IMG/VR virus record: IMGVR_UViG_3300021256_000055
Coordinates: 7,124-71,123 of that record
DNA: 64,000 nt
Strand: one strand, 5' to 3'
DNA from: a virus
Taxonomy: Duplodnaviria > Heunggongvirae > Uroviricota > Caudoviricetes
This document shows, one piece after another, positions 9,077 to 24,509 of this stretch (positions are counted from its first letter, which is position 1; every line of letters starts with the position of its first letter). The notes beneath the pieces are model-generated. The model did no database searches. It worked only from the letters and a program-made list of their open reading frames with translations, and had not been told where the DNA came from. The position numbers were made by a program, and so were the translations under genes.

Positions 9077-9814
9077 CTAGTTAATTTTTTTGTAATCTTC
9101 ATAAACTGCTGATTTATGCCAAAGAATGAAGCCATATATACAATTAATACACCAAAAAACAAATTGTGCTGTCATTACCCAAGAACCAGCTCTGATGGCA
9201 AGAACAACTGAGCCAATGTCAAGAATAAGCCAATAAATCCACTGTTCACGGAAACCAAGTACCATAAATACCTGAGCAATATATGCTGGAACAGAAGTAA
9301 TGCTATCTACAAATGGCTGGCTATCAAGTGCGCCAAACATTGGAACATTTTTAAGGAAAATCCAATATCCAATTGTACCTACTACAAAAATCAAAGCTGT
9401 AATAAGATTTCCTTTCCAACCAAGCTTTTTAGCTTTAATTTCAATAGTCCTAGCATTTTCTTTTCGACGATAATTCTTAGCCCAAATAATAAGACCAATT
9501 ACCATTGAAGTTGCGTACATAATATTTTCAATAAACTCTCCCCAGAGATGCTGAGGCAAAGCAAAACAAAATACATATGTAAATAATTGAATATAACCAA
9601 ACACATAAAAAGAAATTTTTCCCTGTGAACAAAGAACAACCGAAATTACACCTGAAAGACCAGAAATAATCAATCCTACACTATCGGGATTACCAGTGGC
9701 AAAACCAATTGCAATACCAATAATTTGCAATGTAAGACCAATTACAAACATTGCCCAATCCAATGGTTTTTTACCATTGATAAACTCTTCCTTTAGAAGT
9801 TCTCTAAATTTCAT
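9077..9814 (-). CDS. pnuC: Nicotinamide riboside transporter PnuC family
   Basis: About 7 hydrophobic helices, SVVLCSQGK, DSITSV...AQVFMVLGFREQWIYWLILD motif, GFILW at the C-terminus. In an operon with a NadR-like gene. Confidence 0.85.
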   Translation of the reverse strand: MKFRELLKEEFINGKKPLDWAMFVIGLTLQIIGIAIGFATGNPDSVGLIISGLSGVISVVLCSQGKISFYVFGYIQLFTYVFCFALPQHLWGEFIENIMYATSMVIGLIIWAKNYRRKENARTIEIKAKKLGWKGNLITALIFVVGTIGYWIFLKNVPMFGALDSQPFVDSITSVPAYIAQVFMVLGFREQWIYWLILDIGSVVLAIRAGSWVMTAQFVFWCINCIYGFILWHKSAVYEDYKKIN

Positions 9815-9829
9815 TTATTACTCCTTTAA

Positions 9830-10471
9830 TTAAAAATCAATACCTTGTTTAATTATTTGAACTTTCGCTTTAGCCCAAGCATACTTATTTATACCATTAA
9901 GTTTTTCCCGTACTTCTTTTTTAGAAAAATAATGATTCGCATCTCTAAAGTTTTTTGAAAATTCTTCTCTAATATCGTCATAATAGCGCTTTTCACCATT
10001 TATGGTACAGGTAATAATATATCTTTCTATACGATCACATTTATCTGCAAAATAACTTGGATATTCAGCTATAGAATCATCTTCGTCACCCCAACAGGTT
10101 CTTACATCTTTATAGCCCATAGACCAAATCTTAAGAAGTCTACATAATTCAGATCTTCTAAAGGTAGTTTTAACAGTAGGCTTTTTATCCCATTTCATTA
10201 AAGGTATTTCACGATAATAATCACAAGTAGGTGTCTCATTATTCATAAAAAATTTATAAATATCTGAAAAATATGTTATTTTTGACCATTCATCTAACTG
10301 AATATCATCAATATCGCCCTTATTTAGGTCATAAATATCTTTACAGGATTTCTTGATAAACTCTAAATCTTTATCCGAGACCAAAATATGTTTTGTATTA
10401 AACACTAAGTTCCCATCACCAATACATCTTGGATTAGTTATTGAAAGTTGTCTAATATTATCCGTTTCCAT
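9830..10471 (-). CDS. Hypothetical protein between nadR and pnuC
   Basis: 213-aa ORF with SD-like AAGGA; no recognisable motif. Confidence 0.65.
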   Translation of the reverse strand: METDNIRQLSITNPRCIGDGNLVFNTKHILVSDKDLEFIKKSCKDIYDLNKGDIDDIQLDEWSKITYFSDIYKFFMNNETPTCDYYREIPLMKWDKKPTVKTTFRRSELCRLLKIWSMGYKDVRTCWGDEDDSIAEYPSYFADKCDRIERYIITCTINGEKRYYDDIREEFSKNFRDANHYFSKKEVREKLNGINKYAWAKAKVQIIKQGIDF

Positions 10472-10485
10472 AAATTGTTCTTTCC

Positions 10486-11595
10486 TTACGATTGAAATCC
10501 AATACTACGAATATAATCCCTTACAGCACAGAAATTTTCATAATAATTTCCATCTAGCTCTTCAAATTTATATCCAAACATTGTATAAAGTGACTTAAGA
10601 TTATTATAAAAGCCAAGACGGATTTCATAATCTGAGTCAGGCATATAGCGTTCACCATCGTCTACAATTGGTTTTCTTTTTGGCTTAATTAAGAAAATTT
10701 TATTCCACTTGATAGTAGGCGCATACTCTTTAGCTACATCATAAAGAACATTATAATTTTCTTTAGTAAGAGCAAAACCCTCACGATCTTTATATGCTGC
10801 AGCATACATAAGTGTTACCATATTATCAGTATCTGAAATAAATACACCTGGATTTTGTGGAGAACAAATAAGTTCCTCATTATACTTATTCTGCTCAGTA
10901 ATATTATACAAGAAATCTTTGAAATTAAACTCTGTATCATTTTTCAAGTGGCAAATATCACGACCCTTTTCATATGAAAAAGGAATCCCAAAATATTTGC
11001 CAATATCATGTGTAAGAGTTGTTTTACCTTCTGAGGCAGTACCAGCAATAAGAATATTATGTGAATAATAAGCACGGAATGGCTGAGCAATTTTAAACCA
11101 ATGTGCGAGTGGATTCTCTCGACACATTGTACCTGAAATAGGATTTTCTGTTCTATCTGAAAAATCTACATGTACACGATAACTATAAAGTGCACCAAGA
11201 TTTTTGACAGCATTTTTAATATCATCTACATATTTTTGTTCTGCAACATAAAAAGTTACAGTATCACTCCAATCCATATCATTATTTGGATGAGGCGTTT
11301 CCTGAATAAACTTCTCTACCTCACCTAGCCAAACTTTCCAATTATTAGGACACATAGATTCATCAAGTCCTAACTTAGTATCATTTATCATATGTACTGA
11401 TACTGTCTCATCTTTAAGAAAATTTCGGATAATATTAAATCTTTTTTCAAGTGGTAAAAGTTTTCCACGAGGATCGCCATCATAACCACAAACAATAATA
11501 TGAGTAAAATCATTTAACTTTTTAGCTTTCATAATCAGGTCAAGATGGCCCTGATGCATAGGTGAATAACCACCAAAACAAATTCCTATATTCAT
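10486..11595 (-). CDS. nadR: NadR-like bifunctional NMN adenylyltransferase / ribosylnicotinamide kinase (no HTH)
   Basis: N-terminal nucleotidyltransferase FGGYSPMHQGH (HxGH) and ISGT.CR; C-terminal P-loop ILIAGTASEGKTT; DTDN..T and DDG.R motifs. Confidence 0.85.
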   Translation of the reverse strand: MNIGICFGGYSPMHQGHLDLIMKAKKLNDFTHIIVCGYDGDPRGKLLPLEKRFNIIRNFLKDETVSVHMINDTKLGLDESMCPNNWKVWLGEVEKFIQETPHPNNDMDWSDTVTFYVAEQKYVDDIKNAVKNLGALYSYRVHVDFSDRTENPISGTMCRENPLAHWFKIAQPFRAYYSHNILIAGTASEGKTTLTHDIGKYFGIPFSYEKGRDICHLKNDTEFNFKDFLYNITEQNKYNEELICSPQNPGVFISDTDNMVTLMYAAAYKDREGFALTKENYNVLYDVAKEYAPTIKWNKIFLIKPKRKPIVDDGERYMPDSDYEIRLGFYNNLKSLYTMFGYKFEELDGNYYENFCAVRDYIRSIGFQS

Positions 11596-12680: not shown

Positions 12681-12866
12681 AAATAAAAGCTTGAGATTTC
12701 TCCCAAGCTTTGAAATTTAATCATCCATGCCTATTATTTATTTTAATATGTATAAAATACATATACGTTTATCTTCGGCTTAGATACATAGATAAACGAT
12801 TTCCAAGATATTGTAAAACTACAATATATTATAAATACACATATTAAATGTATTTTCCATATGCTT
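12681..12866 (-). ncRNA. Candidate structured non-coding RNA (four hairpins plus terminator)
   Basis: ORF-free ~190-nt interval between an ACTAATT motif (12867-12873) and a terminator (12686-12711). Contains four stems of 7-9 bp. Confidence 0.45.
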
Positions 12867-12876
12867 AATTAGTAAA

Positions 12877-13746
12877 TTAAACAGCAATCGGAGCCTTAAT
12901 AGATGGGTCTGGATTATAATTCTTAAGTTCAAAATCAGTATTCTTCCAATTCCAAATACCATTCCAATTTGTAATTTCAATTGTTGGTAATTCTTTTGGT
13001 GTTCTCTGAAGCTGTTCCTTTACAGCATCCAACTGATTTTCATAAATATGACAGCTACCAAAATATCCAATGAGTGTACCCGGATTATACCCCGTTTCTT
13101 TTGCAATAAGTGTAAGAAGCATGGCATATGAAGCAATATCAAATGGAACACCAGCAAACAAATCGGAGCTGCGCTGGAACCACATCAAATCAATTCGATT
13201 TTGTTCTGGATAAACAAGAAGTTCATAAATCATATGGCAAGGCGGAAGTGCCATCTCGTCAAGCTGCTGTGGATTCCAAGCTGAAACTACCAAACGTCTT
13301 GAAGTTGGATCTTTCTTAATTGTTTCAATTACATTTTTAAGCTGGTCAACACCACCTTCATCCTTGCGCCAATCACCATTAAAATGTCGGTACTGAAATC
13401 CATAAATTGGTCCAAGCTCATTTTCTGCTGCCATCTTTTTCTTTGTTTCTTCATCATTAGCATATGGCACAATAGCTGTACTACACCATGAGTCCCAAAT
13501 ATGACAGTTACGTTCTCTCAAGAATTCTTTATTATGAATTCCCTTAATAAACATTTCAAGCTCTGCACAACAGGTTTTCATACCAATCTTCTTTGTTGTC
13601 AAAGCTGGGAATCCTTTACTCATATCATGCTTAAACATATAGCCTGATGTTGCTATTGTATCAATACCAGTTCTATTATGAGTTTTAACTCCGTTTTCCA
13701 AAGTATAACGAAGCATATCTAAATATTCTTTCACATTATCCTCCAA
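12877..13746 (-). CDS. thyA: Thymidylate synthase family enzyme with Asn-to-Asp specificity change (possible dCMP methyl/hydroxymethyltransferase)
   Basis: RTG, TTKK, IW..W, LGPIYGFQYR, SRR, SAWNP, MALPPCH (catalytic Cys170), QRSSD, HIY motifs. GVPFDIASY replaces the canonical G.PFNIASY. Confidence 0.9.
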   Translation of the reverse strand: MEDNVKEYLDMLRYTLENGVKTHNRTGIDTIATSGYMFKHDMSKGFPALTTKKIGMKTCCAELEMFIKGIHNKEFLRERNCHIWDSWCSTAIVPYANDEETKKKMAAENELGPIYGFQYRHFNGDWRKDEGGVDQLKNVIETIKKDPTSRRLVVSAWNPQQLDEMALPPCHMIYELLVYPEQNRIDLMWFQRSSDLFAGVPFDIASYAMLLTLIAKETGYNPGTLIGYFGSCHIYENQLDAVKEQLQRTPKELPTIEITNWNGIWNWKNTDFELKNYNPDPSIKAPIAV

Positions 13747-21015: not shown

Positions 21016-22731
21016 TTAGATTTCATAAATTGATTTATTAGGATAATATGCGCTAAAAGCATTTTCTATTCTAGTAAAATCAGTTTCAGTAGCTCTATCA
21101 CTATCGTTACAGCACATAGAACGGGTTCTCTTATCTGGGTCCGGCTCTAAAATTTGACTTATAATCTTATCTGTCTCAATGCCTACTTGATAATACTGGA
21201 ACTTAAATGTTTCAAATACACCATGCCCGTGGAATAATGCATTCTCTGTCCAAATATATTGATTAAAGTTTTTCTTTTCTCTAAATCTAGAAATAGATGC
21301 AAGAATTTCAGCTTTATTTTTTTCAAAAAATTCTTTATTTAAGGACCTAAACATAGGCTTACCAATATGTTGTAACTCATAAAGGTGCACACCATCAACG
21401 TATTTTTTAAGATACTCAGGCTTATCTTGTGCAGCTAATCTAAGTGAGTTAATAGGAATTTGTGCCCAAACCTGTTCATAGTCACCATCATGCCAAAGCT
21501 TTCTGACATGCAGGTCTGACCTTAACTTATTTTCTTCATTAAAATAAAATTTAGGTTTTAATATATAATTTGGATACATATCATCATTAGAATATATAAA
21601 CTTATCTGAAAGCCCAAAAATATTATGGATAAACATCTCAATAGTACAACTATTAAATGTTGGTAGATATTCTTCTGGAATAATATCTTTATGTTCAACA
21701 ATTCTAACTTTTGTTTGGTCAATCCAACTTGGTACCTGAGTTTTATCTGATACAATCATATGAATTGTACCTATCCAAGGCATCCATTTTTCAATTGCCC
21801 TAAATTTATATTTAAGTAAGTTTTCACATGCTCGGAATCTTGTAGTACCATTTCTAGTTGCATCAATATCTTTACCAGAATACTTACAATACTCTTTAAT
21901 CCAGACATCTTTTGTATTATCTACATATGGGAATACATAGTCAATTTTTTTATCCCTAGCCAAAACGTCTTCAAAAGTTTTAATTACTAAATCTTCAATA
22001 TACTTAAATCTTGTAAGTTTTCTAAATGCTTTAAGTGAATCTTCAAAACTTCTAATAAGACGAATTTTTCTATCAATACTTAAAACTGAATGGGATAATG
22101 AGTTTGCATTTATTGTATAATTATAAAGAATATCATCAATAGATAATATTTTACCCGCAATACAAAAAGCTTTAATATTAAAAATTGTATCTTCGCACAT
22201 ATCACAAGGTGCAAAAGTTATATTATTATCTTTTAATAATGAAGCTTTATATATTTTATCCCAGCAATGTCCAATATCATAGAGTGGGTCTGAGAATACT
22301 TTTCTATCTTCTGGCTTATAAATTCCTGGCTCACCTAAATGCCATACTCTCCAGTTTTCACCATTCTTTACAACATTTATCGCACTTTGAACAATTAATG
22401 CATTATTCTTTTCAGCCTCAGTTATTGCTACTTCAAATCTATTTGGATTTATCCAGTCATCCGAGTCAACAAATCCAATCCATTCGCCTTTAGCAAGGTA
22501 AATTCCTAAATTTCTACTGGCTGCGGGGCCTTCATTATATTTATGAACTACCTTAAAGCGGGGATCAAAAACAGAGTATGCGTTACAAATAGAACCGGAT
22601 TTATCGCTAGAACCATCATTTATTAAAAAACATTCCCAATCCTGAAATGTTTGGGAAGCAATACTATCTAAACATCTTCTTAAAGCTGACTCAGCATTAA
22701 AAACAGGCACAATAATAGACAACTTTGGCAT
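21016..22731 (-). CDS. GT2 glycosyltransferase fused to a Stealth-family hexose-1-phosphate transferase
   Basis: GT2: SIIVPVFN, INDGSSD, NEGPAASRN.G, FVDSDD, ED..FN. Stealth: CR1 IDYVFPYVD, CR2 RAIEKWMPWI...PTFNSCTIE...FIYSNDD, CR3 SRFR, CR4 CCND. Confidence 0.85.
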   Translation of the reverse strand: MPKLSIIVPVFNAESALRRCLDSIASQTFQDWECFLINDGSSDKSGSICNAYSVFDPRFKVVHKYNEGPAASRNLGIYLAKGEWIGFVDSDDWINPNRFEVAITEAEKNNALIVQSAINVVKNGENWRVWHLGEPGIYKPEDRKVFSDPLYDIGHCWDKIYKASLLKDNNITFAPCDMCEDTIFNIKAFCIAGKILSIDDILYNYTINANSLSHSVLSIDRKIRLIRSFEDSLKAFRKLTRFKYIEDLVIKTFEDVLARDKKIDYVFPYVDNTKDVWIKEYCKYSGKDIDATRNGTTRFRACENLLKYKFRAIEKWMPWIGTIHMIVSDKTQVPSWIDQTKVRIVEHKDIIPEEYLPTFNSCTIEMFIHNIFGLSDKFIYSNDDMYPNYILKPKFYFNEENKLRSDLHVRKLWHDGDYEQVWAQIPINSLRLAAQDKPEYLKKYVDGVHLYELQHIGKPMFRSLNKEFFEKNKAEILASISRFREKKNFNQYIWTENALFHGHGVFETFKFQYYQVGIETDKIISQILEPDPDKRTRSMCCNDSDRATETDFTRIENAFSAYYPNKSIYEI

Positions 22732-23037: not shown

Positions 23038-23940
23038 TTAATTATAATACCTTATAATCTTACCATTTTCATACTCTTCTAGAACTTCTGACTTAGAAAA
23101 CTTATCTAAAAGGCTTTTATTAAACTTAATATTACCTTCGTATTCTTTATCAAAGATAGTAAGAATAAACTCATCTATATAGCCAATAAGCTGCTCATAA
23201 GTTTTAGCGCCACCAATTATATATGCCTCTGACGGATCAAATTCCAGAATTTTTTTATGATTTGCTTCACATTCTTCTTGCGTCTCATTTTCATCTTTCA
23301 CAGATGGCATATGAGCTTCAATATTTTTGATTGCATTATAAACAGTATTCAATGTATCAAAATCATGCTTATTTTTCAGCTGCTCTTCAATATACATTCC
23401 AAATAAGCTTTTATCAACAAATACAAATCGCTTATCAGTATCTTTTACAAGAATATAAGAATATAATTGAGCTAATGAATCTTTAGTCATATCAACTTTT
23501 AACTCGTTTACATTCTCATTATTAGCATTTTCACCTTCGATATGCTCACAAAGGCCCCAATAATAATCCAAAAATGTTTTTAATTCATCCTTATCTGTAA
23601 TAGACTTAGCATTATCAAGATTAGAATAATACTCATATTCCTTACTTCCTGGTGGACATGCAATATAAAGATTAGGATTATTTGGTACAGATTTTTTAGG
23701 CTTTACTGAATAAAATTTATCATTCTTAGATACTCGGCCAATAACTAGGTTCAAACGATTTTTCAATGGTTTATTAAAACCTTTATAAGTATTATAGCCC
23801 ATAATAACAATATGGTTTGTAGTTAACTTCTTAAAGTTAGCCATATCCCATTTTGTATCTACATCACCTTTCCATGGAAGATCAATACCATTACCAATGG
23901 TACCATTTTTATCCATAGCCATAATTGCCTTAAATTTCAC
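23038..23940 (-). CDS. folA: Dihydrofolate reductase with a long internal insertion
   Basis: AMDKNGTIG...LPW...DM..FK.LT...VIMG..TY...PL.NR.N.V, then a long insert, then YIIGGA.TY...EGN..F. Confidence 0.85.
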   Translation of the reverse strand: MKFKAIMAMDKNGTIGNGIDLPWKGDVDTKWDMANFKKLTTNHIVIMGYNTYKGFNKPLKNRLNLVIGRVSKNDKFYSVKPKKSVPNNPNLYIACPPGSKEYEYYSNLDNAKSITDKDELKTFLDYYWGLCEHIEGENANNENVNELKVDMTKDSLAQLYSYILVKDTDKRFVFVDKSLFGMYIEEQLKNKHDFDTLNTVYNAIKNIEAHMPSVKDENETQEECEANHKKILEFDPSEAYIIGGAKTYEQLIGYIDEFILTIFDKEYEGNIKFNKSLLDKFSKSEVLEEYENGKIIRYYN

Positions 23941-24509
23941 TAGTCTTCTCCAAATACAAAATCTTTAACCTCAGCTGCAATATCCCCAATAGAACGTTTA
24001 CCTACTGTGATAATCTTCTTCTGATCAATTGAAGATTCATTAAAGGCCTCAACAAACTTATCAAGTTCTTCCTTTTTCTTATTTATATCCAAAGAAAAAC
24101 TTAATCCATCACCTCGAAGCTTATCCCTTTCAATTACATTTTCTGGAGTATCAGTAAAAAGAATAAGTTTTACTGCATCTCCCGTAGGAATAATTTGTCT
24201 TTCTGATGCAAAGATATAATACCCATCATAATCACGGTACATTGGTGAATATACATATTCTGAAAGATGACACCTATCAAAGATAAATAAATCTTTAGAT
24301 GCCATTGCATATTCTTTCATAAACTTAAAAATAGAATTATATTCACTTACAGAAAAATCTCTAATAAGGTCTCTATCCTTTCCAAAAGCCTTAATATTAG
24401 AATAATGCAAAATATGTGGTACTATATATCTTTTTTGAGCTTCTTTTACAATCTCATTTATCTGAGTTGATTTTCCAAGGGCATCTGCACCCTCGATAAT
24501 TAATACCAT
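23940..24509 (-). CDS. Thymidylate-kinase-like deoxynucleotide monophosphate kinase
   Basis: IIEGADALGKST P-loop and FDR.HLSEYVY..YR motif. Confidence 0.8.
   Translation of the reverse strand: MVLIIEGADALGKSTQINEIVKEAQKRYIVPHILHYSNIKAFGKDRDLIRDFSVSEYNSIFKFMKEYAMASKDLFIFDRCHLSEYVYSPMYRDYDGYYIFASERQIIPTGDAVKLILFTDTPENVIERDKLRGDGLSFSLDINKKKEELDKFVEAFNESSIDQKKIITVGKRSIGDIAAEVKDFVFGED

Follow-up and report, generated by a model that had tools for sequence, protein, structure and literature searches.

An aspartate-type thymidylate synthase homologue in a jumbo-phage lineage: a candidate dCMP C5-methylase and a probable route to 5-methylcytosine DNA

Does a thyA-like gene in which the residue for pyrimidine specificity is altered still encode a thymidylate synthase (TS), and if it does not, what would this mean for the DNA of the phage that carries it? 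The question is raised by a 64,000-nucleotide stretch of viral DNA (the window), in which an open reading frame on the minus strand (12877–13746) translates to a 289 amino acid ThyA. The original prediction described this protein as an otherwise canonical ThyA with aspartate in place of Asn177 (E. coli numbering), and proposed that it is a dCMP C5-methylase and that the phage genome is cytosine-modified. The window belongs to the genome record of a linear virus (G000; 258.5 kb, 33% GC, estimated to be 88% complete). The GTG at 13734, which follows a Shine–Dalgarno motif by 5 nt, is the more likely start codon and gives a product of 285 amino acids; an identical database protein (P0002) also has 285 amino acids. 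The gene and its diagnostic residues are as follows:

12877–13746, minus strand: candidate dCMP C5-methylase with a ThyA fold (PF00303, E 1.6e-91; AlphaFold), the sole TS of the contig
13246–13248, minus strand: Leu167 (E. coli Leu143), retained; predicts a methyl and not a hydroxymethyl product (alignment and the rule of PMC13326640)
13237–13239, minus strand: catalytic Cys170 (E. coli Cys146), invariant in 119 homologues
13162–13164, minus strand: Asp195 (E. coli Asp169), retained, and invariant in the 119 homologues; predicted not to be a 5-hydroxy-dCMP synthase (alignment and the rule of PMC13326640)
13138–13140, minus strand: codon of Asp203 (E. coli Asn177, pyrimidine specificity), from alignment
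13054–13056, minus strand: Ser231 in place of E. coli Asp205; Ser or Asn in 118 of the 119 homologues

The A/T-rich intergenic region that follows the gene (12681–12873) is structured, with a folding z-score of -3.97, and includes a terminator hairpin.

Translation and alignment to E. coli ThyA bore out the substitution itself: Asp203, encoded at 13140–13138, stands at the position of Asn177, where the Xp12 TS and T4 gp42 also have aspartate. A TS that undergoes Asn177Asp takes dCMP instead of dUMP as its substrate, and contigs with modified cytosine are told apart from unmodified ones best by positions 177 and 147 (PMC8670742). The AlphaFold model (pLDDT 91.9) has the canonical ThyA fold (TM about 0.9), and the phosphate-binding and catalytic residues are intact: Cys146, Glu58, Tyr94, Arg21/126/127/166, Leu143, His147, Asp169, His207 and Tyr209 of the E. 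coli enzyme are all retained. Fold, catalytic cysteine, arginine quartet and 38–45% identity are shared with the E. coli and L. casei enzymes, including their N177D and N229D mutants, but the window enzyme carries its aspartate naturally and has two further changes, Asp205 to Ser and Trp61 to Met. The description ‘otherwise canonical’ therefore holds for the catalytic residues but overlooked the change at 205, where T4 gp42 has serine as well and some Asn-type enzymes have asparagine.

Aspartate at 177 is also common to the T4 gp42 hydroxymethylase and the 5-hydroxy-dCMP synthases of RB69 and DLP3. An acidic residue at 143 is the mark of the hydroxymethylases and Asp169Asn that of the 5-hydroxy-dCMP synthases (PMC13326640). 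The T4, RB69 and DLP3 enzymes all have an acidic 143, and those of RB69 and DLP3 have Asp169Asn in addition, whereas the window enzyme has neither; with Leu143 and Asp169 kept, the published rules predict a dCMP methylase rather than a hydroxymethylase or hydroxylase. It is very improbable that the enzyme is instead a T4-like dCMP hydroxymethylase (or a hydroxylase) whose product is glycosylated by GT2 enzymes encoded in the window, even though Asp177 and Ser205 match gp42 and GT2 genes are indeed present. Not only are Leu143 and Asp169 retained, but the protein nests among true ThyAs at a distance from gp42; T4 keeps a separate Asn-type td besides gp42, whereas none was found beside the window enzyme in G000, and no TET was found, including in G002 and G009. 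The GT2 gene at 21016–22731 encodes a capsule-type fusion of GT2 with Stealth CR2 that neither the syntenic relative L323 nor three further relatives (G001, G002 and G009) possess. Of the original suggestions, 5hm-dCMP as an alternative product is thus disfavoured and hypermodification of the base by GT2 enzymes is rejected. The window enzyme is probably a dCMP C5-methylase.

The substitution is conserved in related phages. Aspartate is found in 117 of 119 homologues (59–80% identity) and asparagine in the other two, and because the aspartate-bearing homologues stem from independent assemblies and use both Asp codons, a sequencing error at Asp203 is ruled out. All of the best 80 cellular ThyA matches have asparagine. 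A metagenome scan showed aspartate at 13 of 80 loci, mostly the closest ones; the closest phage matches of the window TS are about 44% identical, with no cultured close relative among them. A quick IQ-TREE run, with support by SH-aLRT only, placed a single gain of aspartate at the root of a clade of 41 rows (SH-aLRT 92) that excludes Asn-type enzymes of Patescibacteria and phages, and showed two nested reversions to asparagine and one origin of Val147; the Xp12 TS and T4 gp42 are distant, on long branches of uncertain placement. Members of the clade lie on contigs of 200–580 kb, and those viewed look like phages. On this tree, the ancestor of a clade of jumbo-phage ThyAs appears to have acquired aspartate in a single event; asparagine came back twice, which shows that the state is switchable.

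The two revertants are L324 (P0193, on a 393-kb contig, a natural control) and P0104. Valine replaces His147 in 17 of the 119 homologues, and a subclade (P0028, P0068, P0101, P0106, P0110, P0113, P0119) carries this change on top of Asp177; an engineered His199Ala/Asn229Asp double mutant of the L. casei enzyme reportedly has higher dCMP specificity. Studies of the specificity switch could draw on natural Asp/Asn and His/Val pairs from this clade, at 60–80% identity. Elsewhere, the phage ThyAs of L011 and L013 have a two-residue deletion around 173, with serine aligned at 177, and L412 and L419 encode further Asp-type ThyAs (52–54% identity), the latter also with tyrosine at 147.

Could the enzyme nevertheless act mainly on dUMP, or on both dUMP and dCMP, with Asp205Ser/Asn and Trp61Met compensating for Asp177? 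The phage has no other TS, the enzyme is canonical in fold and at every other catalytic residue, and two lineages have gone back to asparagine without loss of the gene. Natural Asp-type TSs have been assayed, with 5mdCMP formed in vivo by five of seven and none obtained with the other two (bioRxiv 10.1101/2024.12.05.627091). The absence of aspartate from the 80 best cellular matches, the link between aspartate and dCMP from mutagenesis and MetaGPA (PMC8670742), the origin of His147Val on top of aspartate and a restriction-site pattern that tracks residue 177 (see below) all speak against such an enzyme, which we regard as quite unlikely.

If the enzyme is a dCMP methylase, where does thymidylate come from? 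The original prediction had proposed a search for a second, Asn-type ThyA or a ThyX, and none was found in the incomplete G000 contig, which has one TS only. In G002 (411 kb, 98% complete) and G009 (424 kb, complete, with terminal repeats), the Asp-type enzyme is likewise the sole TS and there is no ThyX. With no TS but an Asp-type one, thymidylate would have to come through a deaminase, a point that the original prediction overlooked; the deaminases linked to Asp-type TSs have been proposed as the source of dTTP, on the model of Xp12 (bioRxiv 10.1101/2024.12.05.627091).

Potential partners were sought with a Pfam scan of open reading frames of about 90 to 1,100 amino acids. Two lie side by side in the window:

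23038–23940, minus strand: DHFR, 300 amino acids, with a split Pfam match (PF00186, E 5e-26)
23940–24509, minus strand: dNMP kinase (PF02223), candidate 5-methyl-dCMP kinase

DHFR is kept in L323 and in G001, the closest relative genome examined (76% complete), and is found near an Asp-type TS in L034, L035 and L036; in G002 and G009 the gene immediately upstream of the Asp-type TS is a homologue of the dNMP kinase. These two genomes each carry a gene for a PF00383 deaminase (dCMP-type) and, 2 kb away from it in G002, one for a dimeric pyrophosphatase that locally resembles T4 gp56 (pairwise E about 5e-6 to 1e-4). In L034 and in L036, the latter a relative at 73% identity, the TS gene forms a cluster with deaminase and DHFR genes. 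Deaminase, DHFR and kinase neighbours accompany ordinary ThyA genes too, and so do not discriminate by themselves. Some relatives have FolD and formate-THF ligase genes close to an Asp-type TS (L034:16818–17621, L035:14053–18268 and L325:14366–16015), as would fit a high one-carbon demand.

G000 itself yielded no deaminase, dUTPase, gp56-like, MazG or PRA-PH gene, and in G001 no deaminase was found, only a trimeric dUTPase-like gene. However, DnaB was not found in G000 while G001 has it, so that the replication block is probably missing from the record and gene absences there mean little; we infer that deaminase and dCTPase genes reside in the missing part. Most of the partners originally listed (DHFR, dNMP kinase, HD protein, DUF4406 protein and GT2) are present, the HAD phosphatase being only a weak match. 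The suggestion that the HD hydrolase (11651) removes dCTP is unsupported: the protein resembles the YhaM exoribonuclease family (best structural-database match, E 0.014) and no known dCTPase, and its conservation does not extend beyond the close lineage. A search for a dCTPase, which gave nothing in G000, instead pointed to the gp56-like pyrophosphatase of G002 and G009.

Outside the window, G000 also encodes a methyltransferase that acts on DNA:

L044:7007–8917 (G000 171007–172917), minus strand: C5 DNA methyltransferase, 636 amino acids, with intact motifs and a long variable region

Its best PDB match is M.MpeI, it is syntenic in a close relative, and its family comprises 17 homologues, one of them in a prophage. 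Under full 5mC substitution this enzyme would be redundant, which counts against full substitution. It is compatible with a dCMP methylase that serves thymidylate supply only (dCMP to 5-methyl-dCMP and then, via the deaminase, to dTMP/dTTP), in DNA with mostly ordinary cytosine and site-specific 5mC from the phage C5 methyltransferase; a single TS gene that occupies a housekeeping place next to deaminase and DHFR genes, and the failure to find a dCTPase in G000, would fit as well. We nevertheless think this unlikely, given the gp56-like enzyme of both G002 and G009, the modified DNA of phage VR7 (PMC6326788; see below) and the restriction-site statistics.

Site avoidance was expressed as observed/expected restriction-site counts under a maximal-order Markov model, in six Asp genomes and ten controls (nine with Asn and one with Ser at 177). 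Ten sites chosen by us as characteristic of m5C systems gave mean ratios of 0.92–1.08 in the Asp genomes versus 0.23–1.00 in the controls, with two Asn genomes also showing little avoidance (p 0.003; as the Asp set amounts to about three independent lineages with different hosts, this and the other p values overstate the case). A second set, mostly of m6A/m4C sites, gave no difference (p 0.43). Calibration of the m5C-site test gave 0.61 for RB49, whose DNA we take to be unmodified, and 1.03 for both T4 and Xp12. The PstI site illustrates the difference, with ratios of 0.91–1.03 in the Asp genomes versus 0–0.72 in the controls. In a list-free test on all palindromes, the share of C/G-rich palindromes with a ratio below 0.45 was 0–12% in the Asp sets, the highest being that of G000 (3 of 26), and had a median of about 35% in the controls (p 0.009, likewise overstated); A/T-rich palindromes did not differ.

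The sites that Asp genomes do still avoid are largely ones that are cut in Xp12/T4gt DNA (MboI, KpnI, EcoRV, ScaI, BciVI) or that contain no C, in a comparison of a few sites, by eye, with the published Xp12 digestion table (PMC7653180). G000 avoids MboI and KpnI sites, which are cut in fully methylated Xp12 DNA (PMC7653180), and those of DraI and AseI, which are C-free; G002 strongly avoids EcoRV, BciVI and ScaI sites, which can still be cut, at least in part, when cytosine is modified, and this is hard to square with a methylase that serves thymidylate supply only. There are exceptions: XbaI sites are avoided in G002 and G009, and KasI/NarI sites in G000 (8 against 22 expected) and G001, though 5mC blocks these last enzymes. 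The C5 methyltransferase might be the cause of the weak site avoidance in G000, but no such enzyme was found in G002 or G009 and it cannot explain their lack of avoidance of m5C-type sites. Two other signals were set aside. Depletion of BanI-type sites is not counter-evidence, since T4 has the same dip, and CpG depletion (0.6) is uninformative as a methylation scar because it comes without a matching TpG/CpA excess and is present in Asn-type genomes too.

A parallel case comes from the Gapriverviruses. The td genes of VR26 (L131:10001–10858) and VR7 (L275:9001–9861) encode a housekeeping ThyA with Asp177, Leu143 and His147, as in the window enzyme; VR26 has no other TS. In the tree their aspartate is an independent gain within T4-like td, and the gene of this group (VR7, VR26, SP18) is still annotated as dTMP synthase. 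In VR7, gp56, denA and alc are retained while no gene is annotated as gp42, and VR7 DNA has been reported to contain modified, unglycosylated cytosine (PMC6326788). A 2021 survey noted that Gapriverviruses keep DenA, DenB, Alc and dCTPase and have no known base-modifying enzyme (PMC8056088). The Asp177 td is a candidate for that enzyme, and these phages offer the best natural precedent for the window: a housekeeping ThyA with one change, alongside modified cytosine in the DNA.

The Xp12-type dCMP methylase is classed as EC 2.1.1.54. The 5mC module of Xp12 and PaMx74 (TS homologue, deaminase, DHFR and hydrolase) resembles the window clade in its single TS with Asp177, in the linkage of deaminase, DHFR and kinase seen in relatives and in the lack of avoidance of C-rich sites. 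The Xp12 TS, however, sits on a long branch and has Pro147 and Asn143, whereas the window enzyme, with His147 and Leu143 unchanged, falls within the ordinary ThyAs; deaminases of the window relatives are only about 25% identical to that of Xp12, and phages of the Xp12 type are 64-kb high-GC siphoviruses, unlike the 200–580 kb low-GC contigs of the window clade. The window enzyme would therefore act like the Xp12 module without, as its sequence suggests, being descended from it. The Asp177 TSs of the MetaGPA/mSCD studies (PMC8670742; bioRxiv 2024.12.05.627091), the second of which mined IMG/VR with an Asp177 TS filter, share the diagnostic residue and the TS–deaminase pairing but differ in that no PRA-PH or carbamoyltransferase partner was found in the genome of the window TS. 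The class of dCMP methylases and 5mC genomes is thus already published (MetaGPA, Xp12), a fact overlooked by the original prediction, and the window clade is a separate, widespread lineage within it. What is new here is that the trait arose on its own, and reversibly, in a large clade of jumbo phages, together with the Gaprivervirus lead.

Our preferred reading, to which we give a probability of roughly two in three, is Xp12-like 5mC DNA, with thymidylate made by deamination of the methylated nucleotide. A former housekeeping thymidylate synthase would have been turned into a dCMP C5-methylase by Asn177Asp, converting dCMP to 5-methyl-dCMP with methylene-THF and releasing dihydrofolate that the phage DHFR would recycle. 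The phage dNMP kinase would phosphorylate the 5-methyl-dCMP, dCTP would be removed, and 5-methyl-dCTP would take the place of most or all C in replication. Part of the methylated pool would be deaminated to supply T, so that no Asn-type TS is needed, and the resulting DNA would resist most C-containing type II restriction sites. Substrate, product and incorporation into DNA are what we infer here. The observations behind them are the residues and their conservation, the single origin, the sole TS, the deaminase and gp56-like genes of near-complete relatives and the site statistics; with the residue rules and the VR7 precedent, they lend support to the original proposal of a dCMP C5-methylase and a cytosine-modified genome. 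Genome-wide or extensive 5mC in the phage DNA is accordingly probable rather than certain.

FlaA and flagellin genes near the TS gene in G001 (L471:2437–5974) and BspA-type repeats encoded by G000 suggest a spirochaete host for this lineage. NadR-like and PnuC genes (window 9077–11595), with NAD synthase, Sir2, PARG, isochorismatase and two NUDIX genes elsewhere in G000, suggest an NAD-restoring set. Outside the window (L039–L048), G000 also has genes of RNA repair and translation (Thg1, two RNA ligases, PTH2, a poly-A-polymerase-type nucleotidyltransferase, a beta-CASP nuclease and three tRNAs), five TerD genes, GroEL and a 5,671 amino acid open reading frame at 178841. A divergent adenylosuccinate-synthetase-like gene (L043:16858–17961; G000 162058–163161, minus strand) is common to G002 and G009; at the position where PurA has its catalytic Asp and PurZ a Ser, that of G000 has Asp, and a Z-genome was accordingly rejected.

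Taken more broadly, we put at about even odds a picture in which a large and abundant radiation of 200–580 kb gut-type jumbo phages has acquired genome-wide 5mC through a single substitution in a housekeeping ThyA, with occasional reversion and later refinement by His147Val, and in which the same substitution accounts for the missing cytosine-modifying enzyme of Gapriverviruses; this would be a recurrent, low-barrier route hidden under thyA and td annotations. The Gaprivervirus td lead is more directly useful than the main finding, being testable in laboratory E. coli phages. If the wider picture is true, common large phages of gut type whose thyA annotation looks routine have 5-methylcytosine DNA, methylation-aware sequencing of such samples would be affected, and the host range of these phages would be shaped accordingly, with most type II systems resisted and modification-dependent ones a threat.
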